Origin: Myxococcota bacterium | Lineage (GTDB): Bacteria > Myxococcota_A > SURF-8 | DNA: 64,000 nucleotides | Direction of reading: 5' to 3' | Assembly: GCA_965140415.1 (NCBI GenBank) | Contig: OZ223209.1 | Location: forward strand, 768,001 to 832,000 | Shown: positions 5,385 through 45,075 of the stretch, piece after piece | Layout: every line of letters starts with the position of its first letter | Position numbering within the stretch: position 1 is the first letter of the stretch | Position numbers and translations under genes: made by a program | The notes under the pieces: generated by a model | What the model was told of the DNA's origin: nothing | What the model saw: only the letters and a program-made list of their open reading frames with translations | Databases searched by the model: none

Positions 5385-5448
5385 CGCTTTTCTCCCCGTT
5401 CCGGCGGTTGGCGTCGGGAAGCTTGTTGACCGGCCATGAGGGCGTAGG

Positions 5449-25408: not shown

Positions 25409-27850
25409 TCAGGGGCAACTGGGAGCGGACGTCGCCAGTTGGTTGATAGTGCTGATCTGGCCGCTGCTGCCGTCGATGCGCACCACATGCCACCAGCCGC
25501 CGCCAGCTCCATAACTTGGTCCAGTAATCGAGGCGTACAGCCCGTTGGCGTCGAAGATTTCGACGCGTGCATTCACGCCGCGCCAGGGTCCACCGGCTCG
25601 GCTGAAGTCGTAGATCGAATAGCAATACGTACCGGCAACCAGCGAGTTGATGGTGATCGTTTCCGGAGAGGGTTCCGGGTTGAATGCTTGAATTCCGCCA
25701 TCGTGATCCAGTTGGGCATCCCCGACCGTGCGGTTGCTGTAGTAAACGTGCCCATTGCCGGGCATGTACAAATGGGCGTCCAGATCCGCGCCGCCCAGCG
25801 TCCAGTTGTCCCAGTGCAGCACGATGCGCAGCGCACCTTGCGGCAGTTGCGGCTGGCAACTGAAGGTCACATGCGCCGTGGCTTGTTCGATCAACGTTAC
25901 GGTCATATCCGGGCAGGTGTAGTCACCCATGGCGGGCTGATCGGGAACGTGTGCGCCATAGCTGCGCACCGGGTAGGAGCCGTTTAGCGCGGCTTCACCC
26001 GCCGAATTGCTGGTGACGCTGGTGCCGATGGTCTGCCCGTTGTCCTGCATTTCCCAGTACAGCCCGGAAAGTGTGTCGCCGGTTAGCACGTCCACGAAAT
26101 GACCGATGGCCGCCGGATCGCCGGACCATTGGGTGGGATCGGCGGCATCCAGGGTAATCAGATCGCGTATGCAGGATAATTCCCCGTAATTGTCCACTAC
26201 TTCCAGCTTGATGACATACGCACCGATCTCGTCGAGGGAGATGGTCGGTTGCGCGCTGCTTGGATCGGACAACGCCGCCTGCGAGCCGCTGGGCTGGCTT
26301 TCGATGCTCCAGATATACTCGCTGATGCCATCGCCTGGATCGTCGTCGTAGGAGCCGGTGCCGTCGAGTTGTACGGTGTCGCCCTGGCGAATCTGGTCGA
26401 TGGGCGGCGAGGTGACGCCGATCACGGCCACCGGGCAGGTGTTGAGCAATTCGTTGCCCAATAGTGCAACGGTCAACTCCGGTTGTTCCGGGTCGTTGCT
26501 GGTAATCAGAATTTCCCCGGTATTGTCGCTGTTGGCTACCGGGCTATAGGTTACGCAGACTTCCTGTTCTTCTTCATCGCCGATTTCCGTTGGGGCTACC
26601 GGTTCGTGTGTGAAACTGTATGCGCCGCCGCCATCGTCGGTCATTTCGATGCTGAGGATTCCCAGATCCCAGCAGCCGTCGTTTTGAATGAGCGTACAGC
26701 GTGATGTGGTGCCGCCGAAGGCGACATCGGTGAAATCGATTTCCTCCGGGTCAGCCACGATGACCGGCTCGCAGGCGGTGCCGGTAAGTGGCACTTGCAA
26801 GATCGTGTTGCGTTCGGCATTGGATTGAATCACCAGAGTTGCGGCATCCTCCACTCCATCCGCTGCTTCAGGCGAATAGTGAACGGATACCGTTATTTCG
26901 TCTGCCGGTTCCACATCGAACAGACCCACCGCCTGATTGCTATCGGGGGTATCCGTTACAAAGAATTCCGCTGTTTCCGGGTCCATATACATATCCAGCA
27001 CCGTGATCGTCACGCCACCCAGGTTTTTAAGCAATAGCGATTGCGTATGATCTCCCAGCCGCACCACGCCGAAGTCGATGCGCTGTGGCTCGGCATACAG
27101 TTCGGGGATCGATTTGACATCCGTTTTGATCGGAACGCCGACGTTGGGCTGGCTGGGATCGTTGGAACGGATAATCAGCACGTCCTGATCCGCATCCAGA
27201 TCGCGGGCAGTGTAATTGACGGTGATCTCCGTTTGCTCATCCTTGGCCAGACGGATCGGCAGTGTGTCGGTCTGGGCTTCGAGTTCGGGCACCACATCGT
27301 TTTGATCGTAGTACAAGTAAACCGCGTCGATTAACAGATCCGCCGCGCCGATATTGACCACCGTAACCGTTTTCTGTCGTTGGCTCAATTGTGGCACCGC
27401 GCCGAAATCCAGAGAAAGCGGATCGACCATGATCCAGGGATTGCTTTCCAAATGCGGTACGTCGGTATCGAAGTCGATGTCCGTAATGCCATCGAGCAGG
27501 CCGTCCGGATCGTTGGGATTGATATTGGGCGTATCGCCATCGGGTTGAATGTCGCCGTCGATCTTATCGCCGTCCACATCACCGGCCAGATCTTCATCGC
27601 CGGGGTCGATTGTCGGCAGCTTGCATTCACCGTCGATGCAGAATTGTCCGCTGGGACAGTCGGCATCGTCGGCACATTCGGAAAGAATGCAGGAGCCATC
27701 CGGGTTGCAGCCGTTGACGCAATCGCAATAAGGCGGCGCTTCGGAAACGTCGCCATCCGCGGGCAAACCGGCGCTGTCGTCGCAGCCGAAACCGAAAAAC
27801 AGAACGGCAAAGCCGATCCAGGACATCAACAACATGCGGGACATCGACAT
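25409..27850 (-). CDS. Large surface lipoprotein: Cys-rich segment, three choice-of-anchor D/ASH-like Ig domains, PKD-like and YfaP-like domains
   Basis: FGFGC lipobox; repeated P..LDFG.V ... I.SNDP; LDGTGSYDDD; LRIVLHW..DLDAH..D..PETITI. Confidence 0.75.
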   Translation of the reverse strand: MSMSRMLLMSWIGFAVLFFGFGCDDSAGLPADGDVSEAPPYCDCVNGCNPDGSCILSECADDADCPSGQFCIDGECKLPTIDPGDEDLAGDVDGDKIDGDIQPDGDTPNINPNDPDGLLDGITDIDFDTDVPHLESNPWIMVDPLSLDFGAVPQLSQRQKTVTVVNIGAADLLIDAVYLYYDQNDVVPELEAQTDTLPIRLAKDEQTEITVNYTARDLDADQDVLIIRSNDPSQPNVGVPIKTDVKSIPELYAEPQRIDFGVVRLGDHTQSLLLKNLGGVTITVLDMYMDPETAEFFVTDTPDSNQAVGLFDVEPADEITVSVHYSPEAADGVEDAATLVIQSNAERNTILQVPLTGTACEPVIVADPEEIDFTDVAFGGTTSRCTLIQNDGCWDLGILSIEMTDDGGGAYSFTHEPVAPTEIGDEEEQEVCVTYSPVANSDNTGEILITSNDPEQPELTVALLGNELLNTCPVAVIGVTSPPIDQIRQGDTVQLDGTGSYDDDPGDGISEYIWSIESQPSGSQAALSDPSSAQPTISLDEIGAYVIKLEVVDNYGELSCIRDLITLDAADPTQWSGDPAAIGHFVDVLTGDTLSGLYWEMQDNGQTIGTSVTSNSAGEAALNGSYPVRSYGAHVPDQPAMGDYTCPDMTVTLIEQATAHVTFSCQPQLPQGALRIVLHWDNWTLGGADLDAHLYMPGNGHVYYSNRTVGDAQLDHDGGIQAFNPEPSPETITINSLVAGTYCYSIYDFSRAGGPWRGVNARVEIFDANGLYASITGPSYGAGGGWWHVVRIDGSSGQISTINQLATSAPSCP

Positions 27851-28426
27851 AACACTTCCATTCCTTGAAATAAGAAAAGCCGCATGGAACAAGCGACAGT
27901 CGCTCGTTCTCGAAAAAACCAATTCGCTGACGTGGCAAGCGACTCGGTGAACCCTCCATCAACTGTTGATCGTGACAACGACAAAACGACAACCTAACAC
28001 GTCGTAAAGCCGAAAGCGTACCAGCCAGCGATTGACAGATCGATATCGGCGGTCGCTTTCGCTTCTGCTGCATAATATTCATACAGGCAGAATATTGTAA
28101 TATTGTGACCAGTTTTCATATGCTTGTCAATCGCTTTTATTTCTGGATGCGTAAAAGCTGTGTATCCGAGCCAGGATACAAAGAGGTCAGGTGGCTTCAT
28201 GATGTCGGACGTCTGCTGCCTTACGTAAAATTTCAAACTGGAAAAAATGAATATCCATTCAATATTTTTGTAGGCATTGGATATTTCAGAGCTTTGGCTT
28301 TCTGTGGTTTTACTTTGCATTGCCGAAATGAAGCTTTACAATAGATGGAATTCGAATGTGTTGCAGTGGGGAAGCTGGTCCGGCACGGATGGTCCCACCT
28401 ATTTCGATAAAAGGAGAGAGGCTATC

Positions 28427-29419
28427 GTGTCCAAGCGCCGAATCGAGTTGGATGTCGCCAAGGGACTGTTGATGCTGCTGGTGGTTTTCGGCCATGCCAG
28501 TTATGTGGGCAGTGCCGCCGGGGTATTGGAGTCGGCGCACGATCTGGTCTATACCTTTCATATGTCCGCGTTTTTATTGATTAGTGGCTACTTGGGTTTT
28601 GTCAGCTACAGTCAATCGGGTCCGCTTTTGGGGCAGTTTCGTAAAATGGCGTTAAGCATCGCGCTACCCTATGTGATATTTCATAGTACCTATTTTCTGT
28701 TGTTATATCTGGCTTCAACTCGTTCGGGGGTTGCAACCAACACCCAGGCCAGTGCCTTGACGCTCTCCGATTTTCTGCTGGCGACCTTCCGCCATCCAAA
28801 AGGCGTGTACTGGTATCTCTACCAATTGTTGCTCTTTTTCCCGCTGCTGCTGATTTCCTGGCGCATCGCCAAGGGACGAGCCACGCCTTTTCTGGTACTG
28901 CTTTTCGGGGCCGTGGCGGCAACGCATCTGCTGGACAATCCGATCAATCCCTTTTTACCCTTGGGTGCGATGGCTGCACTGCTGAAAGCACCGCCGGAAG
29001 GGTCGTGGTGGGGAGCTGTGCCTGTCGCAATGATCCTCGGTTATTTCCTCTGGATCGGCGATCCGGGTAGTTTCTTCATCAGTTTGACCCTGACTGGAAG
29101 TATGCTGGCCTTGTTTTTCGCGATGGCTCGTCAATGGCGGGGCAGAGTGATTTACCTGCTCGGTTTCATCGGGGCGACGACCATGCCTGTTTATGTCCTA
29201 CATCCTTACATCCTGTTTTTGTTCAAGTTTCCGGTTATCAAGAATGCATTGCTAGCCGTGGACCCCAGCGGAGTGTTGCATGTGTTGCTGGCGACAATCG
29301 TGACGATTCCCGGTTGCCTGGGGTTATTGTGGATAGCGCAGAAAATGAAGCTGGACCGGCTGCTCTTCGGTCGCACCGTGAACGACTGGCGCATCTTCAC
29401 CGACCGCTGGGCAGCATAA
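28427..29419 (+). CDS. Acyltransferase family 3 membrane protein
   Basis: RIELDVAKGLLMLLVVFGH, YTFHM..F..ISGY, YWYL, YVLH; GTG start after AGGAG. Confidence 0.9.
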   Translation: MSKRRIELDVAKGLLMLLVVFGHASYVGSAAGVLESAHDLVYTFHMSAFLLISGYLGFVSYSQSGPLLGQFRKMALSIALPYVIFHSTYFLLLYLASTRSGVATNTQASALTLSDFLLATFRHPKGVYWYLYQLLLFFPLLLISWRIAKGRATPFLVLLFGAVAATHLLDNPINPFLPLGAMAALLKAPPEGSWWGAVPVAMILGYFLWIGDPGSFFISLTLTGSMLALFFAMARQWRGRVIYLLGFIGATTMPVYVLHPYILFLFKFPVIKNALLAVDPSGVLHVLLATIVTIPGCLGLLWIAQKMKLDRLLFGRTVNDWRIFTDRWAA

Positions 29420-29444
29420 AACCGGCTACCCAATCAAAGGCTCC

Positions 29445-29497
29445 CCCCTTCAATTCCGACTCTGTAGAAACTCGTATATATACGAGGCAACGTGATC
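29445..29497. repeat. Direct repeat, copy 1: displaced duplicate of the kamE 3' end (att-like)
   Basis: 52/53 identical to 33763-33815; encodes DHVASYIYEFLQSRN-stop on the minus strand. Confidence 0.92.
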
Positions 29498-29813
29498 TAT
29501 GCAGGCGTCCAGATCTGTAATCATCCAACAGGAAATGGGCTGGTTGGTTCTCCAGTAGCTAAGAGAATTTTATAGCTAGGAATGAAATTCTGGAGGCATG
29601 AAGTGCTTATCTTGGATTTTACATGAGTGTAAAACAGCACAACACTATCCAATAATTGTTGCTGTCTCCATAATGTTATGGTACCAATTACTTAACTAAA
29701 TCAAAATCAATAGAGTGCTTTGCGGGCAACCTGGGTCCACTTCGAAGACGGATGCGATTGATCGATCGTTCAACCTATAGGGATTGGATATCATAATGAT
29801 ACATTCGAGAAGC

Positions 29814-30392
29814 ATGATTGGGAATGGTGTCTTTGCGCTGGTGTGTCTTGCCGCTGCCGCTGCGATGTTCTTAGGTGGATGTGAAGACAACTTCGAGTGC
29901 GGGGTAGAAACAGGTGAAGGTGCGATCCGATCCTGTGTCGGGAAAAGCGAAGTGTGTGTATGCGCAACCAATCGTTGTGCGGTTTACGATGCCGGCTGTG
30001 AAACGAAGTATCGGTATGTATATGGAACGAGTATAGGTAAGTCGATTGAGGGCGAGAACTGCATAAAAATAGATGATATTGAGGATTTGTACAAAGTAGG
30101 TGGATTGATTCACGAAGGCATCGCTTGCCCGTTAGAGCCTCCGGTTTGTGGAATTGCGGGAGATGACGACCAACCGGTTGAATGTGCCAGTGGGGAGCGT
30201 TGCTTATGTCAAGAGGAAGGTGGCGTTTGTGTGCGGGAAGACGCGGAATGCTTGAGTGAAGGCGCGATATGTATAAATGAAGACGGGGTCTGTGCAAATT
30301 CAGGCTATCGCGCGACGTTCGCTTGGGAATGCATCGAAACACAGCAAGAATCGCTTGTCTTTGCAGATGATGAAACCAGGTTGTGTCCATAA
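29814..30392 (+). CDS. Cys-rich acidic lipoprotein, unknown function
   Basis: LGGC lipobox; two related Cys-rich halves (E.C.C....C...DA.C). Confidence 0.75.
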   Translation: MIGNGVFALVCLAAAAAMFLGGCEDNFECGVETGEGAIRSCVGKSEVCVCATNRCAVYDAGCETKYRYVYGTSIGKSIEGENCIKIDDIEDLYKVGGLIHEGIACPLEPPVCGIAGDDDQPVECASGERCLCQEEGGVCVREDAECLSEGAICINEDGVCANSGYRATFAWECIETQQESLVFADDETRLCP

Positions 30393-30449
30393 ACACGATA
30401 CGCATGATTGATCGAGCTAATCGCCAATTTCAATAGGTAGGGTATTCAG

Positions 30450-33400
30450 ATGAAAACGCAATCCACGGTCCTGATAACGGTACAGATCTTCTGCATTGCT
30501 GTCATCATGTTCTGCGCTACAGCGCAAGCAGAGGCACAATCGAATGACTTCACGAATATCTACATTGTGTATGAGGCTGGTGTACCTGTAGCAGCGGATG
30601 GTGATGCCGATGTGGATTCGGAAATTGAAGGAGAGGCGGAGCAGGGTGACGACTCGGAGACTGATGTTGATGCGGACTCTGAAAATATAAGTTGCACTAG
30701 GAATGAACTGGAGTTGAGCATCCCGAAGGGAGCAAAAATAGGTTCTGAAGAAGTGAGGGTAGAAGAGGGATACTGTATCGCGAAGGATTGGCCAGAAAGG
30801 TGTAATGCTGATTATATCTGTAAACTCAAACAAGAAGAAGAATACAGGGTAATAAGTGGGGAAACCAGCCGGTCGCAGAATATCTACATGATTAAATCCG
30901 AACTGTTTGTAATAGATGAAACTAAGAATATGTTTTTTGAATATCTCAGGCCTACAAAGGTCAAAGCCTATATCGGGATAAAAAATATCGCGAATGACAA
31001 TGTATTGAATGTGATGAAGGAGCATCTCCGTTTGTCGCTTCTGGAATCGGACCCAGTCGGGAACAGCGGCTCGGATTTCCATCCCGATAATGAGTATGCT
31101 GTTTGTGATTACGAAAGCAAACGGGATCTGACTGATTCCCTGGCATTGACCGTATCTTTCATTCCAAAGTCTGGAGTGATTTTCAATCCCAACGGCAAAC
31201 AACTTGGGAGATTCCCTTTTAAAGGAAATGGACACGATGCCAAGGAGTCAATAACTAGCCGCAATTGGCGATTGAGAAACATTCCTGAAACCGCATATTA
31301 TCAAACAATCAACAACGAAAAGTGTTTTGATTTGAATGTGGGATTATCAAGGCTGTATAATACTGTAGGGAAATGTACGTATCGAGAGACGAAAGAATCT
31401 CCTGATGTCCAAAGAGTATGTTGTGAAAATACTGAAACCGAAGCAAAGATAGTAGTAAAATACAAAGATACGGTAAGAAATGAAAATAACATAATTAAAA
31501 ATAATATAACAATTGATATTAAAACTGAACCAACTGTCTGTAAGAATTACAGTATAACACCATTAACAAAACTATATGGCGGGACCAGAAACGCCAAAAT
31601 GCTGTTCCAAGCAAAAATGCCGAATGAATTATGCCTGCTACCGAAAAGCATTGAAACCAATAGCGAAATCGTAGAGCCGAAACGAGTTTCCTTACAGCCC
31701 TATTCGGTAGATGGCTTGGATCCATCCACGAAAATATTAATGGCGAAATTCGTCTCGGTTAAAGCAAGTACGGGACGGCAAGATGTCGAGTTCGATGTCA
31801 CGCGCAGCAATGAAGAAAATAAAAAGAAGGTCGTGGTTACAACAAGACCCAGCCCGGTTGTGAAGCGCGATCCGGAAGTCGTGGTGATGGACAGTAAGAC
31901 TGGAAAGGTATCATACAAGGCAAAAACCCCAGGTGAAGTGTTTATTGCAACGGACGGAGACAATTGGTTCAACTGGCCCCTGAACAGGCCGGATTATTGG
32001 GATGTACATGTTCCGAGCGGAGAGTTTGGAGGTTGTGAAAACGGGAAGGTGTGGGTTGAAAATCAAATAAAAGAAAAAGTAAAAGGGTATTGTATCGATT
32101 ACAAGATGAATGTGGGTCACGATCTCCAAGCGCTTACCTTCACTTTCGGACTTAAAGGCAAAGGGGTTTTTCCTAGAAATGTTCCAAAGGAGATATCTGA
32201 TAAAATTATAAATGATGATAGCAGGCACTGGGGGTATTTTGACTATACCATGAAGAAAGTGTCCGTCAGGCCGTATCGAAGGGCCCTGAATTTGAAATCT
32301 GAAATTCTTGTGGGTTGTAAATTCCGACCAAAATGTGGCCATGCTGATGATTCGGATATCAAGGTGTTTCGAGAGAATGAAGGAGTAATCGCAGTTGATT
32401 ACGGAAATATCGATGAGTGCTACATGTTGTATCCGTTGAAAAACGATTCTGCCGATATTGGCAGTCAAGAAGAAACAGTCGAGACAACACAAAAATTCCT
32501 GCAAATCGTAAACGATGACTTGATTTCAAGAGTCGGACGCCAAAACATTAAAACGGAATTGCTGTACGTCAACAAGGAGGACGACCAGTTTCAACCATCC
32601 AGTTCAAAAAGGGCCACACCTCCGACTTTGATTTTGGATGATGGTTTGGAACCGTGGAAAGACCATTCAGATTGGAAATTCGCGTACAGAACGAAAACAG
32701 ACAATGATAAGAAAAAAGATAAAGATAAGAAAAAAGATAAAGACAAGGAAAACATCTTTGAGATCAGGGACAAAATTATATTCAAGAAGAAAAAAGACGT
32801 TGAAATTGAAAAACCGGATGTAAAACCACCTGCGAGCGCAAGCCCGACTACAACCACGACCACAACCACAACCACGAATGCAACCACGAATGCAACCACG
32901 AATGCAGCCACGAATGCAGCCGCGAACGAAACCACGAGCGCCACTCCAAACGCAACTGCGAATGCCGCCGCGACTACGAACGCAAGCCCGGACACGATCA
33001 AAAAAGAAGATACCAGCACGAAAGATAAAAATGCCAAAACGGAAAATAAAGACGAGAACGCGAACGAGGATGAAATCGATTTTAATGAACCGATTTATTT
33101 AGCGATCCCGATTCCGATCACGTGCAATGGTACGCAAGTCGTAGACGCCTACGATGTCGTCCGCTTCAGAGCATACTATGCCGACCCGGAGGCCTATGTC
33201 GTGAGCGACGATTCCTTCCCGCAATCGGAGTTCATTCTCGACATTCGAAGAGGGCCGAGACAGAGCCCGCCCGTTGAAAGCAAGGCGAGAATCTTTTTAA
33301 CCGTACCATTGAATCCGGTGATGGTGCGTTATCCGAACTCCGGCATATATTCGGAAAGCAGCGAGGATTACGAAAAGATGGAAACGGCCAGTTTCGGTCT

Positions 33401-33734
33401 TGGTTTGCTGATGGTCCTCGAAGGCTGGGATTATGCGCGAAACAGCCAGCTTTTCGTTCTTAACCCGCAACTCCAGTTCGGAGTGTTGACCACTATGGAC
33501 TACAACCTCGCCGGAAATGTCGATCCGCCGAATCTGTCTATCGTAGTCGGACTCGGATTGAGCCTGCCGAATCGCACTTCGCCGGACAGCACCGTGGAAA
33601 TTGCTACCAACCTGAGCTTTTGGTATGAGTTCGGTTTGTTGTGGGAAAGCCGAGCGTGGCGGGAACACAAAAACCCGCACCATGCCTTGCTTATCGGTCT
33701 TGGTTTGCAGTTTTCATCGTTTCCGGAGCATTGA
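30450..33734 (+). CDS. 1094-aa secreted protein with low-complexity linker and probable C-terminal outer-membrane beta domain
   Basis: Signal peptide ending AQAEA; Thr/Asn/Ala repeat linker; alternating hydrophobic strands at the C-terminus. Confidence 0.75.
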   Translation: MKTQSTVLITVQIFCIAVIMFCATAQAEAQSNDFTNIYIVYEAGVPVAADGDADVDSEIEGEAEQGDDSETDVDADSENISCTRNELELSIPKGAKIGSEEVRVEEGYCIAKDWPERCNADYICKLKQEEEYRVISGETSRSQNIYMIKSELFVIDETKNMFFEYLRPTKVKAYIGIKNIANDNVLNVMKEHLRLSLLESDPVGNSGSDFHPDNEYAVCDYESKRDLTDSLALTVSFIPKSGVIFNPNGKQLGRFPFKGNGHDAKESITSRNWRLRNIPETAYYQTINNEKCFDLNVGLSRLYNTVGKCTYRETKESPDVQRVCCENTETEAKIVVKYKDTVRNENNIIKNNITIDIKTEPTVCKNYSITPLTKLYGGTRNAKMLFQAKMPNELCLLPKSIETNSEIVEPKRVSLQPYSVDGLDPSTKILMAKFVSVKASTGRQDVEFDVTRSNEENKKKVVVTTRPSPVVKRDPEVVVMDSKTGKVSYKAKTPGEVFIATDGDNWFNWPLNRPDYWDVHVPSGEFGGCENGKVWVENQIKEKVKGYCIDYKMNVGHDLQALTFTFGLKGKGVFPRNVPKEISDKIINDDSRHWGYFDYTMKKVSVRPYRRALNLKSEILVGCKFRPKCGHADDSDIKVFRENEGVIAVDYGNIDECYMLYPLKNDSADIGSQEETVETTQKFLQIVNDDLISRVGRQNIKTELLYVNKEDDQFQPSSSKRATPPTLILDDGLEPWKDHSDWKFAYRTKTDNDKKKDKDKKKDKDKENIFEIRDKIIFKKKKDVEIEKPDVKPPASASPTTTTTTTTTTNATTNATTNAATNAAANETTSATPNATANAAATTNASPDTIKKEDTSTKDKNAKTENKDENANEDEIDFNEPIYLAIPIPITCNGTQVVDAYDVVRFRAYYADPEAYVVSDDSFPQSEFILDIRRGPRQSPPVESKARIFLTVPLNPVMVRYPNSGIYSESSEDYEKMETASFGLGLLMVLEGWDYARNSQLFVLNPQLQFGVLTTMDYNLAGNVDPPNLSIVVGLGLSLPNRTSPDSTVEIATNLSFWYEFGLLWESRAWREHKNPHHALLIGLGLQFSSFPEH
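32848..32927 (+). repeat. In-frame tandem repeats (ACAACC-type 6-mers; 12-mer ACCACGAATGCA)
   Basis: Three ACCACGAATGCA copies plus GCCACGAATGCA, encoding TTTTTTT(TNAT)n. Confidence 0.85.
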
Positions 33735-33762
33735 GAAAACAGAAATCTATGAACGTTTGACG

Positions 33763-33815
33763 CCCCTTCAGTTCCGACTCTGTAGAAACTCGTATATATA
33801 CGAGGCAACGTGATC
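33763..33815. repeat. Direct repeat, copy 2 (functional kamE 3' end)
   Basis: Includes the kamE stop and the 16-bp perfect palindrome CTCGTATATATACGAG. Confidence 0.92.
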
Positions 33816-34508
33816 CGCGTAGGTGCCGGGACCGAAGCCGGCATCAAAACCCAGTTCGATGGCCAGTTGATGGCTAATGCGCGGACCGCCGACGATCATG
33901 ATCATCTGCTCGCGAATGCCGAAGCTTTCCGCCAGTTCGATGAATTCCGTCAGGTTTTGAATGTGGGCGTCTTTCTGGGTGACGACCTGCGACACCAGGA
34001 TGGCGTCGGCTTTCATATCGATGGCCTTGCGGATCAACTGCTCGTTGGGAACCTGGCTGCCCAGGTTGAGCGCGTCGAAAGATGGGTAACGCTCCAGCCC
34101 GTAATGGAAGTTATAGCCCTTCATGTTCATGATGGCGTCGATGCCGACCGTGTGCGCATCCGAACCGGTGCAGGCGCCCACAACGACGATTTCACGTCCC
34201 AGATTCTCCTGGATCAGTTTGTTGACCTGTTCGAATGAATAATGCTTGGTATCGACTTTGGGGACATGAATGGCGGTTAAATCCACATCGTGCGTGCATT
34301 TTCCGTAAACGACATAGAAACTGAATCCGTTTTTCAAGTCGCCCTGATGCACCACCGATGCTTCGGCCAGTCCCATCTTCTCAGCCAGTAACAGCGCGGC
34401 CTGCTTCGAGTTTTCATCCGCCGGGGTCGGCAGGGTAAAGGAAAGCTGCATCGCGCCGTCGTTTAAGGTGTCGCCGTAGGGTTTGACGTGTTTCAAATCG
34501 ATCTGCAT
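33768..34508 (-). CDS. kamE: Lysine 5,6-aminomutase beta subunit
   Basis: KPYGDTLNDG.MQLSFTLP; B12 motif DAHTVG; PLP lysine in IMNMKGY; VSQVVTQKD. Confidence 0.95.
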   Translation of the reverse strand: MQIDLKHVKPYGDTLNDGAMQLSFTLPTPADENSKQAALLLAEKMGLAEASVVHQGDLKNGFSFYVVYGKCTHDVDLTAIHVPKVDTKHYSFEQVNKLIQENLGREIVVVGACTGSDAHTVGIDAIMNMKGYNFHYGLERYPSFDALNLGSQVPNEQLIRKAIDMKADAILVSQVVTQKDAHIQNLTEFIELAESFGIREQMIMIVGGPRISHQLAIELGFDAGFGPGTYADHVASYIYEFLQSRN

Positions 34509-34518
34509 AGCCAACCTC

Positions 34519-36099
34519 CTAATCCACCACGGCGGTCAATTCACGCCGGAACACGTCGAGCATCGGATTATAGTAGCCCTGCCGCTTGGGAGCGACGCCC
34601 GACAGCCCCTTGCCGCCATCTTTGGCGCGCTTGACATCGGCAAAGCGACCCTTGGCGATGCTTTCCATCAGACCGCTGCTCTTGACTTCCTGCAACAGTT
34701 CGATGGTTTCACCAAGTACTTTATGGGCGCGCGTCTGCACGATGCCGCCTTCTTTAATGACCATCTCCTTGCCGATGCTCTTCACGGCGTTCATCACCAG
34801 TTTGGCGTTTTCCAGCGCCAGGTAACGGTCCTGGATAAACGGTGTGTGCAGGGCTTCGGTGAGCATGCCCAATAGCTGAATGCCCTGGCCGGTCCACTGC
34901 GATACGAGGTTGAACAGCGCATTCAACATGTACGCGCGGAAGATGTCGCCGGTGATATGCTTGGTCGGCGGCATGTATTTCAGTGGATGATCCGGGAAGA
35001 CTTCCCGCACCAGTAGCGCCATAGCCAGTTCCAGCAGGAAGCTGTCTTCGATTTCCGGTTTGATTTCATAGGCGTGGCCCAGGCCCATCAAAGATGGTTT
35101 CAGCCCGGAATTATAGGCGAACTGTTCGTTGATCAGATCGCTGGCCAAAACCGTATTTCCGGCTTCCACGGCGTCGGCGGTGGTCAGGTAGTTGTCCTCG
35201 CCGGTGTTGATCATCACACCCGCCAGCGCGTTGATCATGCGCGAGAAATGCTGGTCGCAGAAGGTGCGGTACATGTTGATGTCGCGGAAGAGGATGCCGT
35301 ACATGCTGTCGTTCAGCATCATGTCCAGCCGTTCCAACGCGCCCATGGCAGCGATTTCCGGCATGCACAAACCGCTGGCGTAATTGACCAGACGGATGTA
35401 GCGTCCAAGCTTTTCGCCGACTTCGTCTAATGCGCGGCGCATGATCTCGAAGTTTTCCTGGGTGGCGTAGGTGCCGCCGAAGCCTTCGGTCGTCAATCCG
35501 TAAGGGACATAGTCGAGCAGGCTTTGTGCGGTGGCGCGAATAACCGCGATGATATCCGCTCCCTGCTCGGCGTGGCGGGTGGCCTGTTCGATGTCTTCGT
35601 GGATGTTGCCGGTGGCGACGATGACGTAAAGCAGGGGACGATCTCGCGGAGGCTCCGCCGCGATCTTTTCCTCGCGCAGGCGACGATTTTCGGCGATGCG
35701 CTGTAATTGGGGAGCCAGCAGTTCATTGGCTTTGGCGTAGATCTGCTCGGGTGGCACTTTCTCCAAATCCAGCAGGTCGATCTCGCCGCGTCCCACCGCC
35801 AGAGCCAGTTCCTTCGGTTCGAGACCGGTGCGCAATAGCCCGCGCACAAAGGGTTCGGTCGCGCCTTCGCCCAAATGGCGCTTGATGGCGTCCACCACTA
35901 CATTAGGTAAGGGTTCGCCCTGGTCGTTGATGCCTTTCAGGCCCAGCAGCCGCAAGGTGGTGCGCTCGATCGTTACGGTGGTGTGACGATTGATGTAGCC
36001 CTGGATGTCGTCGGCGATATTCTTGGCCAGCTCGCGCGCGAGTTCGATGTCAACGGGGTTCAGATTCAGCAGTCCAGCAGTCGCACGTGCAGCATTCAC
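34519..36099 (-). CDS. kamD: Lysine 5,6-aminomutase alpha subunit
   Basis: YVIVATGNI.ED, QSLLDYVPYG.T.EGFGGTYATQENF, NYASGLCMPE, LKYMPPTK. Confidence 0.96.
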   Translation of the reverse strand: MNAARATAGLLNLNPVDIELARELAKNIADDIQGYINRHTTVTIERTTLRLLGLKGINDQGEPLPNVVVDAIKRHLGEGATEPFVRGLLRTGLEPKELALAVGRGEIDLLDLEKVPPEQIYAKANELLAPQLQRIAENRRLREEKIAAEPPRDRPLLYVIVATGNIHEDIEQATRHAEQGADIIAVIRATAQSLLDYVPYGLTTEGFGGTYATQENFEIMRRALDEVGEKLGRYIRLVNYASGLCMPEIAAMGALERLDMMLNDSMYGILFRDINMYRTFCDQHFSRMINALAGVMINTGEDNYLTTADAVEAGNTVLASDLINEQFAYNSGLKPSLMGLGHAYEIKPEIEDSFLLELAMALLVREVFPDHPLKYMPPTKHITGDIFRAYMLNALFNLVSQWTGQGIQLLGMLTEALHTPFIQDRYLALENAKLVMNAVKSIGKEMVIKEGGIVQTRAHKVLGETIELLQEVKSSGLMESIAKGRFADVKRAKDGGKGLSGVAPKRQGYYNPMLDVFRRELTAVVD

Positions 36100-36101
36100 G
36101 A

Positions 36102-37718
36102 TCAGCCTCCCTGGTGTTTTAACAAGTCACGGGCCTGCGCGATGATTTCGGTTTCCAGTCCCAGTAATTCAGCCACATCCAGGGCGTCGCTTTTGGCTGT
36201 ATCGCCCTGTTGCGCCGGAATGACGCGGTAGTCCATCAGTTGATGCAGGGGCGGCTTTGCGCTGCCCTGCTGCTCGCGCCAGCGTGCCAGCGCCTGATGA
36301 TCCAATCCCGCCATGGCCAGCGCCGTCACTTCTGCTCCGCCCAGTCCATCTAAATGGGAAGCCATCAGCAGGGCGGAAGGAGACTGGCGCACGGTGTCCA
36401 GAATGGCCTGAACCAGCGCCCGGCCTTCGGCCACTCCCGTGGTGCGTCCGGGTTCGTCGAGCAGGTAGAGAATCGTTTTGTTTCGATCCGGAAGAGCCTG
36501 GCGCAGGCGGTCGATTTCACGGCCAAAGGCAGACAGGCCGCCGATTTCCTGACTTGCGGGTCCGATGGCTTCCACGCGCGAAAAGAGATGGGTCGTAAAG
36601 CCTTGCGCCGGAACGAACATTCCGAGTTGCGTCAGCGTTTGCAACCAGCCAACGGTCTGTAATACCACCGTTTTTCCGCCCATGTTCGGGCCGCCTAAGA
36701 CCGCGCAGGATACATTCAAATTCAAGGTCAACGGGGTGTAATCCGCGTCCGATTGCTCCACCCATTCTTCCACCAGCACGTGTCGTGCTTCGCGGATTCG
36801 AATCGAGCTTTTCCCATTGCTGCTGATCTCAGGCTGCACCGCGTTCCAGTTGCTGGCCAGATTGGCCATGGCAAACAGCAGGTCCAGCCGCGCCAGCTTG
36901 TCTTCTTCTTCCCGCCAGGCGGTTTCGTTCGGTTGCTGCTGTTGCTGGATGGACTGGTAGATCTCATTCTCGATGCGATGTTCATCCACCAGCAGATCGG
37001 ACAGGCGCCCGCGCAGTTCGGCCAGTTGCGGTCCTTCAAGCGCTTTGAATGTCACCGTGGTGATGGATTCATCCGCCAGCATCAGTTCGTCGTCGTGCTT
37101 CAGTCGCTCCAGGCGTTGGGTGTCGCTGCGGTCGATGACCCAGGCGGCGTTGGTTTCCGGCAATTCGTGCCGCTTGGCCAGTCGCTTTCTTGCCTCTTGC
37201 TCCTGTTCGGCGATCTGAACCTGAATGTTCCGAATCTGTTCGCGAACTTTCGATAACGACGGGTTGGAATCGTCTTTAAGATAGTAGCGGATTTCGAAGA
37301 CATCCACCGGCAGCCCGTCCGAAAGCGCATCCGCCGCCTTCAATTGGAGCCAGCCGGACAACAGGTCGTTGTCTTTCAAGCTGTCTCGCAGTGCCTGATG
37401 GTTCCTTCTGAAACGCAATAGCAGGGCGATTTCCGCCTGGCCCCAGTTCATGTCCCACAATGGCGCGATGCGCGGCAGGTCGTTTAGATGATGCCGGATG
37501 CGGTCGCAGGTTTCGGGCCAGTGTTGCAGCATTTCCAGCGCTTCCTGCAAGCGTTGTTGATGCTCGCACAGCGCGTCTTCCTCGCCTGCAACGAAGGCGG
37601 TCAGCCGTCTGGCCAGAAACTGCCCCGGTTCCGAAATCGGGAGGAGTTGCTTCAGGCTGCGGTCCACTCCCAGTAACCGGGCGCTGTCCCGGTTGATGAA
37701 TTCATGTAGCGCTTTCAT
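36102..37718 (-). CDS. kamC: MutS-like ATPase KamC (aminomutase reactivase subunit)
   Basis: GPNMGGKT Walker A, GLSAFGRE, LLDEPGRTT..EG; position between kamB and kamD. Confidence 0.8.
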   Translation of the reverse strand: MKALHEFINRDSARLLGVDRSLKQLLPISEPGQFLARRLTAFVAGEEDALCEHQQRLQEALEMLQHWPETCDRIRHHLNDLPRIAPLWDMNWGQAEIALLLRFRRNHQALRDSLKDNDLLSGWLQLKAADALSDGLPVDVFEIRYYLKDDSNPSLSKVREQIRNIQVQIAEQEQEARKRLAKRHELPETNAAWVIDRSDTQRLERLKHDDELMLADESITTVTFKALEGPQLAELRGRLSDLLVDEHRIENEIYQSIQQQQQPNETAWREEEDKLARLDLLFAMANLASNWNAVQPEISSNGKSSIRIREARHVLVEEWVEQSDADYTPLTLNLNVSCAVLGGPNMGGKTVVLQTVGWLQTLTQLGMFVPAQGFTTHLFSRVEAIGPASQEIGGLSAFGREIDRLRQALPDRNKTILYLLDEPGRTTGVAEGRALVQAILDTVRQSPSALLMASHLDGLGGAEVTALAMAGLDHQALARWREQQGSAKPPLHQLMDYRVIPAQQGDTAKSDALDVAELLGLETEIIAQARDLLKHQGG

Positions 37719-38724
37719 CTTTGCCTTCTCTTTCAGGTTCGATCAGCCAGGGATCGAAACAGGGAATCTCGTTCAAGCGGGATCGTAACGCGCGCAGGGT
37801 CGCTATCGGCGGCAGGCTGCGTTGTTCCCCACCATTGGTGCGCAATGAAACGAACACCAGTTCGGGACGCACACCCAGTTGGATTGCCAGACCGCGCCGC
37901 TTTAATTGCTCGATGCGCCTGGGTGGTACGAAAATGCGGGAGGGGTCATCGACGATGATGCAACGGCAGCCGGCGTCAAGCAGCACTTCGGATAGCAGCG
38001 GCGTAAACGGTCCGCCGATCCAGACGCTTTCCACATGTTCCGGAAGCTCACCGGCTTCCACCGCATGGCGGGTCACACAGTCCCAGTTGCCGTTTGGCAG
38101 GGCGAAGGCGACTTCGTCGCCGTCCAGATGTTTCGGGCGCTTGAGTGTGGTTTCGTCCAGGTAATACAGGGAAACCTGGCCTTCGATTTCCGCCGTCAGC
38201 GCCTCGGTGGATTGATGGGGCCGGGGACGAAAAGCCAGACCGACCTGACAACCGGGAAACGCGGAGATGGGCGTTCGACGGTCGGCGGCGCCATCGACCA
38301 GCACGCGTCTTACACCTAAGGAGTGAATGCGCGTGATGATGGCAGCCAGCATGGCGACCGAAGGCGCTCCAACCAGTTCCACTTCGCCGCTGCGCACACA
38401 GCGACCCAGCACCAGACGCCCTGCCTGTCCGCGCTGGGAGTCGGACCAGAGCAGTTCGAAGCGCGCGCTGGAACGGGTCAATAGATCCGCCGCTGTCAAT
38501 ACGATGTCATTCGGATAGGCGGTTACACGCGGCTTTTCTCCACCGGTAAGATGATCCCGGCCTTCGCCGTCCCAGCCGGTAGTCACCAGACCAAAGCCGA
38601 TCTGGCCGCTGAGTTGCATTTCCGCTCGCAGATGATTCAAGGTTACGGTTTTCCCCGCGTTTTTCTCCGAACCGACGATGAACAGCGGTTTCGAAGACGC
38701 GAGCATGGTTTGGGGGGCAAGCAT
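37702..38724 (-). CDS. kamB: KamB-like P-loop protein
   Basis: G.EKNAGKTVTLN, G.DGE..D..TG..KP, LVDGA.DR; overlaps the kamC start. Confidence 0.75.
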   Translation of the reverse strand: MLAPQTMLASSKPLFIVGSEKNAGKTVTLNHLRAEMQLSGQIGFGLVTTGWDGEGRDHLTGGEKPRVTAYPNDIVLTAADLLTRSSARFELLWSDSQRGQAGRLVLGRCVRSGEVELVGAPSVAMLAAIITRIHSLGVRRVLVDGAADRRTPISAFPGCQVGLAFRPRPHQSTEALTAEIEGQVSLYYLDETTLKRPKHLDGDEVAFALPNGNWDCVTRHAVEAGELPEHVESVWIGGPFTPLLSEVLLDAGCRCIIVDDPSRIFVPPRRIEQLKRRGLAIQLGVRPELVFVSLRTNGGEQRSLPPIATLRALRSRLNEIPCFDPWLIEPEREGKDESAT

Positions 38725-38845
38725 GAATCCGGCCTCTCTCGAAAGGGAGTAAAGCGCTTAATGTGTATATCGCACCGTTACTTCGTTTGCCATGGTTTTC
38801 ACAGCAGCTTGCTATTATTGCCTATTCTGCACTACTATTGTGATT

Positions 38846-38914
38846 GGGTGCCATGGGCAAAGCGAAGCTTGCCCATGCCGATCACGGGCAAGCTTCGCTT
38901 CGCCCGCGCCACCC
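38846..38914. repeat. REP-like palindromic doublet (family A)
   Basis: GGGTGCCATGGGC..GCCCATG..CACGGGC..GCCCGCGCCACCC; homologous to 5969-6052. Confidence 0.8.
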
Positions 38915-38961
38915 TTCCATTGAAAGGCATAGCGATATCTACAGTAGTCCAGCGCTTGTCC

Positions 38962-39032
38962 TGTCATTCCCGCGTAGACGGGAATCCAGAATGAAAACAA
39001 AGAACTGGCCCCCCGCCTGCGCGGGGGTGACA
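38962..39032. repeat. dRS3-like REP doublet (family C)
   Basis: TGTCATTCCCGCGTAGACGGGAATCCAG ... CTGGCCCCCCGCCTGCGCGGGGGTGACA inverted pair; first arm fits ATTCCC-N8-GGGAAT. Confidence 0.8.
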
Positions 39033-39076
39033 GCATAGGTGAATCGCTGAGATCAAAGAACAACCAGTCTAACGCA

Positions 39077-40330
39077 CTACTCTTCCCGTTTTTTCCGATT
39101 CGGAACCGGTCCGATATTCAGGTTCTTGGATGAGGCTTCTTCGATCATCCAGGCCGGCCCTTCCTTCGGAGCGTATTTCGGATTGCGCGGCAGGCGCGGG
39201 AAATCTTGATCCGCCTCGGTTTCCTGGTTTTCCACGTAGCGGCTGATGGTGCCCTCGAAATTGCGTAGGATCGTTACGCCGGGTGCCTGGGAAATCAGGT
39301 AGTTGGGCATCACCGGAATTTTGCCGCCGCCGCCGGGTGCGTCCACCACGAAGGTCGGTACCGCCATGCCGGAGGTATGACCGCGCAAAGCTTCGATGAT
39401 TTCGATGCCTTTGGACACCGGCGTGCGGAAATGCCCGATACCAATGGATAAATCGCATTGATACAGGTAGTAGGGCCGGACGCGCATCTTCAACAATCCA
39501 TGCACCAGTTCCTTCATGACGTACGGATTGTCATTGACGTGGCGCAGCAGAACCGATTGATTTGCAACCGGAATACCGTGATCTGCCAGTTTGGCGCAGG
39601 CCGCGCGGGCTTCTTCCGTCAATTCTTTCGGATGATTGAAATGCGTGTTAACGAACACCGGCTGGTAACGTTGAATGATTTCGCACAGTTCGTCGGTGAT
39701 ACGCATGGGCATGACCACCGGGGTGCGCGTGCCGATACGGATGATTTCCACGTGTTCGATGGCGCGTATGCGCTTTAAAATGTCTTCGATGCGGCCATCG
39801 GCCAACGTCAGCGGATCGCCGCCGGAAATGATGACATCGCGCACTTCTTCGTGCTCGGAGATGTAATCGATGGCGCGATCCAGATAATCTTTACCGATAT
39901 CGGCGTCGTGCTCGCCCACCAACCGGCGGCGCGTGCAATGGCGGCAGTACATCGAGCAGATTTCCGTCACCAGCAGCAGCACCCGGTCGGGATAACGATG
40001 CGTCAAGCCCGGCACCGGGGAGTCTTCGTCTTCGGCGAGCGGATCTTCCAGATCGTTGGGTGATTTTTCCACTTCCAGGGCTCGCGGCACCGCTTGCAGG
40101 CGCACCGGGCAGGCAGGGTCTTGCGGATCGATCAAACTCGCGTAATAGGGGGTAATCGCCATGCGAAAACGTTGCAGGCTTTTCAATACGCCTTGCTCGT
40201 CCTGCTCGCTCAGCGGAATCACATGCTTCAGCTCTTCAACCGTTTTGATGCGATGGCTGATCTGCCATTTCCAGTCGTTCCACTGTTCGGCGGTGACGTT
40301 CTCCCAAGTTTCCGTGTCCTTTTGGGCCAT
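39077..40330 (-). CDS. kamA: Lysine 2,3-aminomutase (radical SAM)
   Basis: [32 protein letters not shown]; start ATG 40330 after GGAG. Confidence 0.96.
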
Positions 40331-40355
40331 TGGGGCGTCTCCTTCCTTCACTGAT

Positions 40356-41405
40356 TTATAAATAACGCTTCTCGAACTCCGTGCGGATGTAGCTGCTTTC
40401 GCGTAGCAGTTCCAAGGTGATCAAGGCATGATTTTTGGTATAGCCGTTACCGATGATCATGTTGATGTCCTTGCCGACGCCTTCCGCACCCAGCGCCGCT
40501 TTGGTGAAGCTGGTGGCCATCGAGAAAAAGTAGACCGTGCCGCCTTCCTTGCAGGGCAGGATCGATCCCATTTCGCAGTCGGGCATGTTCACGCAGTTGA
40601 TGACCACATCCACGCCTTCGCCATTCGTAACGGCTTCCACCTTTTCCAGCAGATCCACCGCTTCTACAGCGCTGCCGGTCACGATTTTGTCCACGAACGG
40701 GGCGTTTCGCAAAACTTCGATGTTTTTGGCGCTGTGCTTGACGCCGATGACTTTGCCGGTCACACCCGCCCGGCGTTTTGCCTCGTAGCAGCACAACAAG
40801 CCGCTTTTACCCGCCGCACCGATAATCAGTACGTTGTCGCCCGGCTTCACCAAGCGGGCGGTCTGTGCGGGAGCACCGGCTACGTCTAGAACGGCCAGCG
40901 CCAGCTTTTCCGGAATATCTTCGGGAAGTTTGGCGTAAATGCCGCTTTCGAACAGAATGGCCTGCCCGACGATGTCCACCTGGTCCATGCCCTGGCGGAT
41001 TTCCTTGATCTCATCGATGCGCAACGGCGTCAATGACAAGGAGACCAAGCTGGCGATTTTATCGCCCGGCTTCAGATCGATTTTATCTTTGAGCGCATCG
41101 CCAACCTGTTTGACTGTACCGATAAACATGCCGCCGCTTCCGGTCACCGGATTTTTATGTTTGCCGAATTGAGCGACGATACCCAGCATGATTTCGCGGA
41201 TTTTGGCGTCGTCCCCTTCTGCCTGCTGCTTGATCTGCGTGAAACTGGCGGAATCGACGTTCAACGTGTGGACGTCGATCAGGATTTCGTTGTCATACAG
41301 AACAGTTAGATCATTGTTGATTTTCAAAGCCGGTTGGGGCAGAACGCCCTTCGGTTCGATGACACGATGCGTTCCGTAACGATTTCCTTTGGGTTGTGCG
41401 CTCAT
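40356..41405 (-). CDS. kdd: L-erythro-3,5-diaminohexanoate dehydrogenase
   Basis: [61 protein letters not shown]. Confidence 0.95.
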
Positions 41406-41807
41406 CACCTCTCTCCTTTTTTTCAGCAGACTAACATGTTCAGCTTCGAGGTTCAACCATCGATTCGGCGGGGGGAGTTACGCAAGCAAATTGCAGGTTT
41501 TCCCGCCACCCCAAGCGGTATACTCTTTACAGGCGAATGCCTGCCTGTCAAGCAAAGTTTTCGATATCTTTTCGGGGGATTACGCGGCTAAAACAAGCGC
41601 GTGAAAAGATGGCTGCATTGACGATGAAGGCAAGGCGTTAGAATCCGGCTTGTTGCTCGTGCTTTCCTTAAGCGAGTTTCTTGCGTAGATGGCAAAAATG
41701 CAGTATTAATCATGAGATCTAATCATGTGCGGGATTGCAGACTGTCTTTAAACCGCAAGCTGCGAAAGCCGCTGAATGTACAGCTTCTTTTTGGGGAAAT
41801 CGAAATT

Positions 41808-44847: not shown

Positions 44848-45031
44848 AGCGGTTCTTAATCATTTTCAGCCACGAATCTGAAGAATGTGTGCCGTTGGCT
44901 TACGCGATCGAAGATCGTGGAAGGCTGTGTGTTTTCAATAAGTTAGACACGACATCCCGGAATCTCCATTCCGTGAGACCATGCCACATCGTGATTACTC
45001 GATGGTCAGAAATGAGTAATACCTACTCTAG
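44845..45031. repeat. ~190-bp dispersed MITE-like element, copy 2 (inverted relative to copy 1)
   Basis: Ends TAGAGCGGTTCTTAATCATTTTC / GAAATGAGTAATACCTACTCTAG form an imperfect inverted repeat; homologous to 10916-11105. Confidence 0.75.
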
Positions 45032-45075
45032 CGCTGTTTCCGTTCAGCAAAAGCGCTTGATTACGACTCCGCTTT

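Follow-up and report, generated by a model that had tools for sequence, protein, structure and literature searches.

A 4.3-kb islet at the 3' end of kamE in an uncultured Myxococcota bacterium is probably the product of a Campbell-type site-specific integration, which would have rebuilt the target gene's end; it now stands without an integrase and resembles a cis-mobilizable element (CIME) that stands alone, or a decayed genomic islet. We analysed it within a stretch of 64,000 nucleotides, called the window here, and against the whole genome. We propose that a circular DNA of 4,318 bp, bearing a copy of its target's final 53 nt, integrated at the 3' end of kamE by a crossover in or near a palindromic core. 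Such an event would leave one repeat copy joined to kamE, which would be kept intact, and one orphan copy beside the neighbouring acyltransferase gene. The recombinase responsible was most likely of the tyrosine type, and its gene would have been lost or would never have been part of the element. Having no integrase, excisionase or transfer gene, the islet should be immobile alone and would move only when given a cognate integrase. The features of the locus are as follows.

28277..29419, plus strand: Acyl_transf_3 acyltransferase gene, the left neighbour, whose stop codon ends at 29419
29445..29497, no strand: left direct-repeat copy (attL-like), with A at 29453
29471..29486, no strand: left-repeat copy of the perfect 16-nt palindrome CTCGTATATATACGAG, a candidate core for a recombinase
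29498..29795, no strand: AT-rich non-coding left end of the islet, 298 nt
29796..30392, plus strand: cargo gene 1, coding for a predicted lipoprotein of 198 aa that is rich in Cys (lipobox FLGGC identified by eye)
30450..33734, plus strand: cargo gene 2, 1094-aa predicted secreted protein (signal peptide read by eye)
33763..33815, no strand: right direct-repeat copy (attR-like), with G at 33771
33768..34514, minus strand: kamE, lysine 5,6-aminomutase beta subunit, 248 aa, with OAM_dimer and B12-binding domains
33789..33804, no strand: perfect 16-nt palindrome CTCGTATATATACGAG in the right repeat, coding for S-Y-I-Y-E of KamE
34519..41456, minus strand: rest of the lysine-fermentation operon, namely kamD, kamC (reactivase ATPase), kamB, kamA (lysine 2,3-aminomutase) and a dehydrogenase

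The direct repeat and its palindrome

The two copies, 29445-29497 and 33763-33815, form a 53-nt direct repeat that is identical at 52 of 53 positions and exact over 44 nt. The sole mismatch is synonymous, giving AAT in the left copy and AAC in the right on the minus strand, both of which encode Asn. Both copies read DHVASYIYEFLQSRN followed by the stop, that is, the last 15 codons of kamE and its stop codon, and the repeat also takes in 5 nt of the kamE 3' flank. The right copy runs on into the body of kamE and provides its working 3' end, and the left copy is a non-functional duplicate of that end. The borders are sharp: just outside both ends of the repeat, similarity is random. The sequence-only reading had described a 53-bp repeat with one synonymous difference and a 16-bp palindrome, and we found the palindrome perfect in both copies.

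The exact 44-mer has two matches in the window and none in 100 shuffles, and a search of the 5.98-Mb genome that allowed up to 3 mismatches gave exactly two sites. A genome-wide search with the 53-mer likewise returned only the two repeat copies; the next-best ungapped matches agree at 30-31 of 53 positions, which is background level, and the next-best matches to the core agree at 21-23 of 32. A 25-nt core was looked for in genome_contigs, metagenome_contigs and viral_contigs, and none of these held an exact match. The identity over 53 nt would in principle also permit a RecA-dependent single crossover.

This genome holds 128 perfect 16-nt palindromes against about 91 expected, and arithmetic from the genome count gives a chance of about 8e-4 that one falls within a given 53-mer. 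The palindrome is laid out as short inverted half-sites, or inner arms, flanking an A/T centre, and inverted half-sites around a centre are the geometry expected of a recombinase core. No terminal inverted repeats linking the two islet ends were found. In the reconstructed attP arms there were no arm-type repeats, the counts being those expected from shuffles; the 298-nt left end of the islet also had none above shuffle expectation, nor did it hold an ORF with a family match or an Rfam match.

The target gene and its flanks

kamE is intact and belongs to the same length class as its relatives. The lysine-fermentation operon is conserved, and it is syntenic with that of family relatives as far as kamE. 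No counterpart of the Acyl_transf_3 gene on the other side of the islet turned up in the four nearest relatives. Removal of the islet would leave kamE (minus strand) and the Acyl_transf_3 gene (plus strand) convergent, as the sequence-only reading had noted, their stop codons being about 30 nt apart. ATA makes up 1% of the Ile codons in the kam operon versus 28% in the islet, and host-rare codons, ATA, CTA and AGT among them, appear in the kamE tail within the repeat. This codon choice fits a tail that was supplied or shaped by the element.

We then asked whether other genomes carry a duplicated kamE end. None did, neither the 17 kamE-bearing relatives nor 68 further kamE loci (0/17 and 0/68; at least two genomes are in both sets), and a literature search on aminomutases and integration gave no report of kamE as an integration target among the ten papers listed. 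Thus kamE is not a recurrent integration target in the genomes examined, and the earlier proposal that kamE serves generally as an attachment site gained no support. The closest KamE relatives are 68-70% identical, and at 70% or less they are too distant to reveal an empty site.

Composition and cargo of the islet

The DNA between the repeats is 4,265 bases long and, as had been claimed from the sequence, AT-richer than its surroundings (GC 0.448; genome 0.524, window 0.535). Its codon usage is atypical, with a GC3 of 0.48 versus 0.66-0.70. No DNA similarity to the islet was seen in the rest of the genome or in plasmids or phages, and none at the protein level either. The low GC, the atypical codons and cargo without full-length homologues make the islet DNA look foreign.

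Cargo gene 1, which has an alternative TTG start at 29784, matched no family, and the homologue search returned only the protein itself. The N-terminal part of cargo gene 2, about 870 aa, has no relatives, and the gene was not found in the 40 relatives searched. Its product does have 64 remote relatives, which cover only the C-terminal 200 aa or so (an unnamed family), and this family gave three weak matches in 300 other genomes of the phylum. The description of both genes as orphans holds for the lipoprotein and needs slight adjustment for the last 200 or so residues of the large protein.

A structure model of the C-terminal domain (pLDDT 76.5) has long beta strands, in which it may resemble small outer-membrane barrels; the comparison was with the eight-stranded antiparallel transmembrane barrels of OmpA-, NspA- and OmpW-like proteins. 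Foldseek returned nothing at E <= 0.001 for this model, and in VIA-align barrel proteins dominated the top rows at Z 5-6.9, below the Z 8 caution line of the tool. From the model, the C-terminus of cargo gene 2 may be an outer-membrane beta-barrel anchor. The cargo may be a horizontally acquired two-gene envelope module, in which a Cys-rich lipoprotein accompanies a large secreted protein.

Search for a recombinase

No recombinase was found by Pfam on the two islet ORFs and 48 other ORFs of the window, and PHROGs assigned no family to nine islet ORFs on both strands. Pfam, NCBIfam, PHROGs and PADLOC gave the two islet genes no family, whether integrase, excisionase, relaxase, transfer gene or transposase. 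When the 20 recombinase ORFs of the genome itself were compared by tblastn with 27900-34000, only noise was obtained (best E 0.02 over 23 aa), so that tblastn and PHROGs both failed to find a recombinase pseudogene or remnant in the islet. No replication gene was found there either. These searches bear out the claim that the islet is without a recombinase.

The genome has 14 tyrosine and 6 serine recombinase loci, the nearest of which lie about 286 kb (the nearest PF00589 match) and about 360 kb from the islet. A tyrosine-recombinase island with its own integrase can accordingly be rejected. We found neither a cognate integrase nor a related integrase-bearing sibling element in the genome, plasmids or phages.

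Integrase-bearing islands in the same genome

A genome scan for direct repeats that match exactly over 28 nt or more and lie 0.8-120 kb apart gave 172 pairs. Five of these are islands: a tyrosine integrase lies beside one of the two repeats, and a tRNA gene is located at a repeat.

tRNA-Leu: repeat of 59 nt, island of 30.0 kb
tRNA-Arg: repeat of 40 nt, island of 14.1 kb
tRNA-Ala: repeat of 48 nt, island of 62.5 kb
tRNA-Pro, island 1: repeat of 53 nt, island of 62.4 kb
tRNA-Pro, island 2: repeat of 51 nt, island of 16.4 kb

The kamE islet has the same topology as these islands, its 53-nt repeat falls in their size class (40-59 nt), and two of the five are likewise AT-rich (GC 0.42 and 0.47). 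The earlier structural reading, in which an insertion duplicates and restores the 3' end of its target gene, holds for the anatomy. The tRNA islands differ in their integrase beside one repeat, their tRNA targets and their size of 14-62 kb, whereas the islet is integrase-less and has a palindrome in coding sequence as its core instead of a tRNA arm. In the tRNA-Leu array, a 1,248-bp segment between 51-nt repeats and a 127-aa integrase fragment mark a decayed tandem element, which shows that element decay does occur in this genome.

Comparison with known elements

The closest likeness is to CIMEs, which are described in streptococci as decayed ICE/IME derivatives that keep att sites and lack recombination and transfer genes (PMC7563491, PMC5704250). 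In these accounts 'classical' CIMEs are 1.2-13 kb long with cargo, and they occupy the 3' ends of the protein genes fda, rpsI and rpmG, which are left intact (PMC7563491, PMC5704250). The streptococcal survey adds that stand-alone CIMEs escape the usual detection, which starts from signature genes (PMC7563491). The islet, with 4.3 kb and two cargo genes at the 3' end of kamE, compares well with this description: it has attL/attR-type repeats, of which the right one completes the target gene, and no functional integrase, excisionase, relaxase or transfer gene.

It is unlike CIMEs in that it stands alone, with no tandem ICE/IME, in that its target was not seen as one in the 17 relatives or the 68 further loci, and in its host, since CIMEs were defined in Firmicutes. 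Descent from an ICE or IME is not recognisable in DNA or protein similarity or in gene remnants, and may be untraceable, so we call the islet CIME-like in function instead of classing it as a CIME. The suggestion that it is a remnant of a larger or decayed element fits better than that of a cassette mobilised in trans, and it is an inference: neither a remnant of a recombination gene nor a related integrase-bearing element was seen.

Integron gene cassettes are also small, promoter-poor cargo units that lack their own recombinase and are moved by an integrase in trans. The islet differs from them in that it has neither a long imperfect palindrome of the attC type nor an array, no integron integrase lies close by, and its repeat copies the target gene's end.

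Alternative explanations

Could the islet have arisen without a site-specific recombinase? A circular fragment could have entered by a RecA-dependent single crossover, or the duplication could have come from the repair of a staggered break, which the palindrome may have triggered. An identity of 53 nt exceeds the minimal length usually quoted for homologous recombination, palindromes are known fragile sites, and a singleton islet without integrase, remnant or arm-type sites would suit such an origin. The incoming DNA must still have borne the exact kamE tail, though, which implies an earlier excision from a kamE site. Exact restoration of the gene, down to 5 nt of its 3' flank, sharp borders, a repeat as long as the true att repeats of the same genome and islet ends without terminal inverted repeats all argue against this origin, which we regard as unlikely.

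The palindrome-bearing kamE tail might instead be an active att site, at which a recombinase acting in trans, either a resident one from the 14 tyrosine and 6 serine loci or one brought by an incoming element that accretes at the site, excises the integrase-free islet and inserts it again. The near-identical repeats with both palindromes intact and the wealth of encoded recombinases are compatible with such mobility, and the survey of streptococcal elements describes CIMEs that were mobilised following accretion (PMC7563491). Against it, the site has no second or degenerate copy in the genome, its 25-nt core had no exact match in the three contig collections, the nearest recombinase genes are far away, and no other genome examined has the duplication. 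The reading of the islet as a cassette mobilised in trans thus found no support, and we judge ongoing mobility to be quite improbable. If it were true, surface-protein cargo would be exchangeable between strains.

The reads of two runs, taken as k=31 contigs, bear both on mobility and on the assembly itself. In run X1 the flanks had depths of 31.6 and 30.4, compared with 35.6 in the islet and 65 in the 44-nt repeat. The islet thus lies about 15% above its flanks, an excess that may hide circles and may equally reflect composition bias, and the contigs break inside the 44-nt repeat and so cannot show circles. The contigs connect the A variant with the left flank and the G variant with the islet's right end. 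Depths and variant linkage in the contigs of the two runs agree with one integrated copy.

Were the islet an assembly artefact, the kamE site would really be empty with the 4.3 kb existing as a free circle, or a mis-join would have occurred at the short repeat. The contig graph permits both resolutions, as the contigs of both runs end within the repeat. Nevertheless, the islet is at near chromosomal depth and the repeat at double depth, the islet has no replication gene, which makes a stable one-copy circle implausible, and the genome is one 5.98-Mb contig. The 44-nt repeat is below ordinary read length and should be resolvable by an assembler. An artefact is therefore very improbable.

Insertion by host XerC/D at a dif-like site, as in Xer-dependent integrative elements (IMEX) or dif modules, is disfavoured to the point that we give it hardly any credence. 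The islet shares with these modules the lack of its own recombinase and a palindromic core with short inverted inner arms and an A/T-rich centre. Yet its boundaries are long direct repeats that copy a gene end, not 28-nt dif-like sites, and its site has no similar copy elsewhere in the genome. It also lies off the replication terminus: its position of 0.80 Mb is roughly 0.4 Mb away from the minimum of the GC skew and 2.3 Mb away from the skew maximum, which falls at about 3.12-3.14 Mb and is where dif would be expected. The best of the partial matches, near 3.129 Mb, does not rise above background and sits in GC-rich, coding-like DNA. A transposon or IS was rejected, since no inverted repeat joins the islet ends, no transposase family matched, and a target duplication of 53 nt far exceeds what transposases make.

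Implications

The islet is a singleton without sign of activity, and its weight is modest. If it did arise by site-specific integration, it would be a clean example, outside Firmicutes, of integrative elements decaying to bare islets of att, cargo and att. It would also mean that a conserved metabolic operon, for lysine fermentation, can host landing surface-protein genes in an uncultured Myxococcota lineage. A scan for att-size repeats, calibrated as here on the integrase-bearing islands of the same genome, offers a simple way to find such orphan islets.

A repeat-bounded islet at the end of kamE

The islet of 4,265 nt lies between two copies of a 53-nt direct repeat (29445-29497 and 33763-33815 in the window), which are identical at 52 of 53 positions with an exact run of 44 nt. 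As the sequence-only reading had claimed, the sole difference (29453 A versus 33771 G) is a silent change when read in the frame of kamE, and the minus-strand translation of both copies is DHVASYIYEFLQSRN-stop, the end of kamE. The 44-mer had two matches in the window and none in 100 shuffles; with up to three mismatches allowed, it matched exactly twice in the single 5.98-Mb contig of the organism. The next-best ungapped matches of the 53-mer in the genome reached 30-31 of 53 positions, which is background, and similarity was lost abruptly past either end of the repeat. Both copies also contain the perfect palindrome CTCGTATATATACGAG, of the 16 nt that had been reported. Perfect 16-nt palindromes number 128 in the genome versus about 91 expected, and the chance of finding one inside a given 53-mer, by arithmetic from this genome count, is about 8e-4. 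The repeat-bounded islet is real and non-random. RNA structure in the kamE tail was not above that of shuffles (z 0.74), and promoter- and terminator-like sites were at the shuffle level.

Features of the islet and its flanks (window coordinates)
Left of the islet: gene for an 837-aa Ig-domain protein
28277-29419, plus strand: Acyl_transf_3 gene, left of the islet
29445-29497: left repeat copy
Left end inside the repeats: non-coding stretch of 298 nt
29796-30392, plus strand: cargo gene 1, 198 aa
30450-33734, plus strand: cargo gene 2, 1094 aa
33763-33815: right repeat copy, completing kamE
33768-34514, minus strand: kamE (OAM_dimer and B12-binding domains)
Right of the islet, kam operon, minus strand: kamD (Lys-AminoMut_A, E 1e-238)
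Right of the islet, kam operon, minus strand: kamC and kamB (NCBIfam reactivase models)
Right of the islet, kam operon, minus strand: kamA
Right of the islet, kam operon, minus strand: dehydrogenase gene

The lysine-fermentation operon to the right of the islet is intact on the minus strand. The nearest relatives of KamE share 67-68% identity in genomes and 70% in metagenomes, and synteny with relatives runs from the dehydrogenase gene through kamE and stops at the kamE stop codon. At the site encoded by the palindrome, relatives carry S-F/Y-I/V-x-E, so the KamE tail peptide lies within family variation. Three codons of the tail, ATA, CTA and AGT, are uncommon in the host (of the Ile codons, 1% are ATA in the kam operon versus 28% in the islet), a hint, from as few as 15 codons, that the tail may have been shaped or supplied by the element. 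Separately, a contig from one of two read-derived runs (depth 5, 25 nt on its shorter side) jumps over 134 nt within kamE (33897-34032), probably reflecting another organism in the sample or an artefact. Elsewhere in the window, positions 380-5904 hold genes for a flagellum, namely flgI, flgH, flgA, two rod genes and fliJ. The nearest relatives of this genome are labelled Myxococcota, a phylum that has classically been regarded as non-flagellated.

Composition and contents of the islet

The enclosed DNA is AT-richer than its surroundings, as had been noticed, with a GC content of 0.448 versus 0.524 for the genome and 0.535 for the window. The GC3 of the islet is 0.48, compared with 0.66 for 45 window genes and 0.70 for the kam operon.

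Both cargo genes had been called orphans, and for the first this holds: its 198-aa product, which is Cys-rich with a lipoprotein-type signal (lipobox read by eye), matched itself alone among 5.8 billion proteins. The 1094-aa product of the second gene carries a signal peptide and matched no Pfam, NCBIfam, PHROGs or PADLOC family, but it is not an orphan throughout. A full phmmer search of 1.84 billion representatives found 64 matches at E <= 0.001, of which 27 reached <= 1e-10 and none <= 1e-30, and the best stretch of every one fell within query residues 849-1092. The matches were mostly located C-terminally in proteins of 600-1200 aa, and none of the 15 scanned among these 64 relatives had a Pfam family. 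A model of the C-terminal domain built with 20 sequences (pLDDT 76.5) consisted of all long beta strands; Foldseek returned no match to it at E <= 0.001, and VIA-align gave Z scores of 5-6.9, under that tool's caution line of Z 8. The top VIA-align rows were small outer-membrane barrels (Legionella Dot/Icm porin, NspA, OprF-N, OmpW, OprH, CarO and OmpA), a lead only, by which the modelled domain might be akin to such barrels. Among 41 genomes of relatives the large protein was present in one, its own, and the C-terminal-domain profile had hits in 4 of 301 genomes from the phylum; one of the four is its own genome, and the other three hits were weak (E 8e-7 to 7e-6). The cargo had no match in plasmid and phage collections by protein or DNA.

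The insert had also been described as free of a recombinase, and our searches agreed. Among the 50 window ORFs that were scanned, none matched an integrase, resolvase or transposase family. The genome has 20 recombinase ORFs (14 PF00589 and 6 PF00239 loci), the nearest about 286 and 360 kb from the islet, and a comparison of these with 27900-34000 yielded nothing above noise (best E 0.02 over 23 aa). No tRNA or tmRNA genes were found in the window, and no Rfam families in 27800-34600. In the search for arm-type sites, 8-10-mers common to both islet ends were at shuffle expectation; the left end held just two trivial 10-nt repeats and, by eye, no excisionase-like small ORF in its 298 nt.

Integrated islands of the same genome

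A genome-wide search for exact direct repeats, with a minimum length of 28 nt and a spacing of 0.8-120 kb, yielded 172 pairs. Most of them were paralogous genes, insertion-sequence copies or members of a dispersed repeat family of about 180 nt. In five of the pairs the repeat overlaps a tRNA gene and a tyrosine integrase adjoins one copy, and a sixth, weaker candidate involves tRNA-Thr (repeat 29 nt, 93 kb).

Integrase islands at tRNA genes (repeat, length, GC)
tRNA-Leu-CAG: 59 nt, 30.0 kb, 0.42
tRNA-Arg-TCG: 40 nt, 14.1 kb, 0.47
tRNA-Ala-GGC: 48 nt, 62.5 kb, 0.53
tRNA-Pro-GGG: 53 nt, 62.4 kb, 0.54
tRNA-Pro-CGG: 51 nt, 16.4 kb, 0.52

At 53 nt, the repeat of the kamE pair (spacing 4.3 kb) falls in the same size class as the repeats of these islands, and when the 172 pairs were sorted by eye, it was the only att-sized pair with no tRNA, recombinase, repeat family or paralogue. 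At the tRNA-Leu(CAG) gene there is a tandem array (2125031-2157954 of the genome contig) in which the AT-rich 30-kb integrase island with its 59-nt repeats is followed by a segment of 1,248 bp, bounded by a 51-nt repeat, and then by an integrase fragment of 127 aa, whose sequence has identities of 29-35 nt to the integrase gene of the island. This array looks like accretion followed by decay, so integrated elements can be seen to decay in this very genome.

Other repeats were observed in passing. At the tRNA-Arg(TCG) island (2592743-2606914), the 40-nt repeat spans the 5' part, not the 3' end, of the minus-strand tRNA gene, an unusual sublocation for integration. Identical repeat pairs of about 1.3 kb, the size of insertion sequences, occur at 71283-82062 and 3079614-3164881. 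The intergenic region 44848-45228 of the window (812848-813228 of the genome) carries two dispersed repeat families of about 183 and 155 nt, with 87 blastn rows genome-wide at 82-99% identity; these look MITE-like.

Origin of the islet

Taken together, the anatomy of the islet and the genome's own controls support well the reading of the islet as an integration scar. Its topology is the one expected if the chromosome and a circle of 4,318 bp, each with these 53 nt, were joined by one crossover. A site-specific recombinase, which we take to be of the tyrosine class, would be responsible, and the palindrome provides two half-sites in inverted orientation about an A/T centre. In tRNA genes the arms serve as recombination cores, which such half-sites recall. 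A crossover in the palindrome would be compatible with the single mismatch to its left, which could also be a later mutation. Homologous or illegitimate recombination might also leave a duplicated gene end, but we consider it unlikely: the abrupt borders, a length like that of att repeats and a gene end restored together with 5 nt past the stop codon all point to a site-specific recombinase.

The sequence-only reading had proposed a cassette mobilised in trans. A cassette of this kind that is still live seems improbable, and we found no support for it. The 25-nt core had no match in genome_contigs, metagenome_contigs or viral_contigs by exact matching, which diverged sites would escape, and neither a cognate integrase nor a sibling element was detected, as judged by similarity to the islet elsewhere in the genome or, by DNA or protein, in plasmids and phages. 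A second kamE end was absent from all 17 kamE-bearing relatives within up to 20 kb, where the longest chance match was 15 nt (44 nt in the window control). It was also absent from 68 further kamE loci within a median of 5.2 kb; these remained from 76 of 80 that held kamE after 8 with a short flank or an incomplete match were dropped, and at least two belong to the same genomes as among the 17. In these comparisons, kamE is not a repeated integration target. The Marininema mesophilum locus has a recombinase-like ORF (L090:11012-11479) some 3 kb downstream of kamD-kamE, with no duplicated kamE end.

An assembly artefact or a free circle is very unlikely. The locus is present in two runs of one study as k=31 contigs, which end inside the repeat with no joint across the islet, and the contig graph by itself permits an alternative path, but the depths (flanks 31.6 and 30.4, islet 35.6, 44-mer 65) fit one integrated copy. 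Xer-dependent insertion at a dif site is highly improbable and was rejected on position relative to GC skew, since the distance of the islet is 0.4 Mb to the skew minimum and 2.3 Mb to the skew maximum. An IS200/IS605-type hairpin element, an integron cassette and a transposon were each rejected from the islet anatomy.

Relation to known elements and to the region beyond kamE

In a thin literature search, none of the papers listed described an aminomutase gene as an integration target. The closest known kind is the cis-mobilizable element (CIME), and the islet works like one. As described in two papers, 'classical' CIMEs are 1.2-13 kb long with cargo, occupy the 3' end of genes such as rpmG, rpsI, fda and rplL, and, when standing alone, escape signature-gene methods (PMC7563491; PMC5704250). 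A search for signs that the islet descends from an ICE or IME gave none, so we do not claim membership. GC dips to 0.44-0.47 at 27800-28600. The acyltransferase gene itself (28277-29419) had no match in the four nearest relatives, so variability is a general feature of the region past kamE, and this variable region may be larger than the islet.
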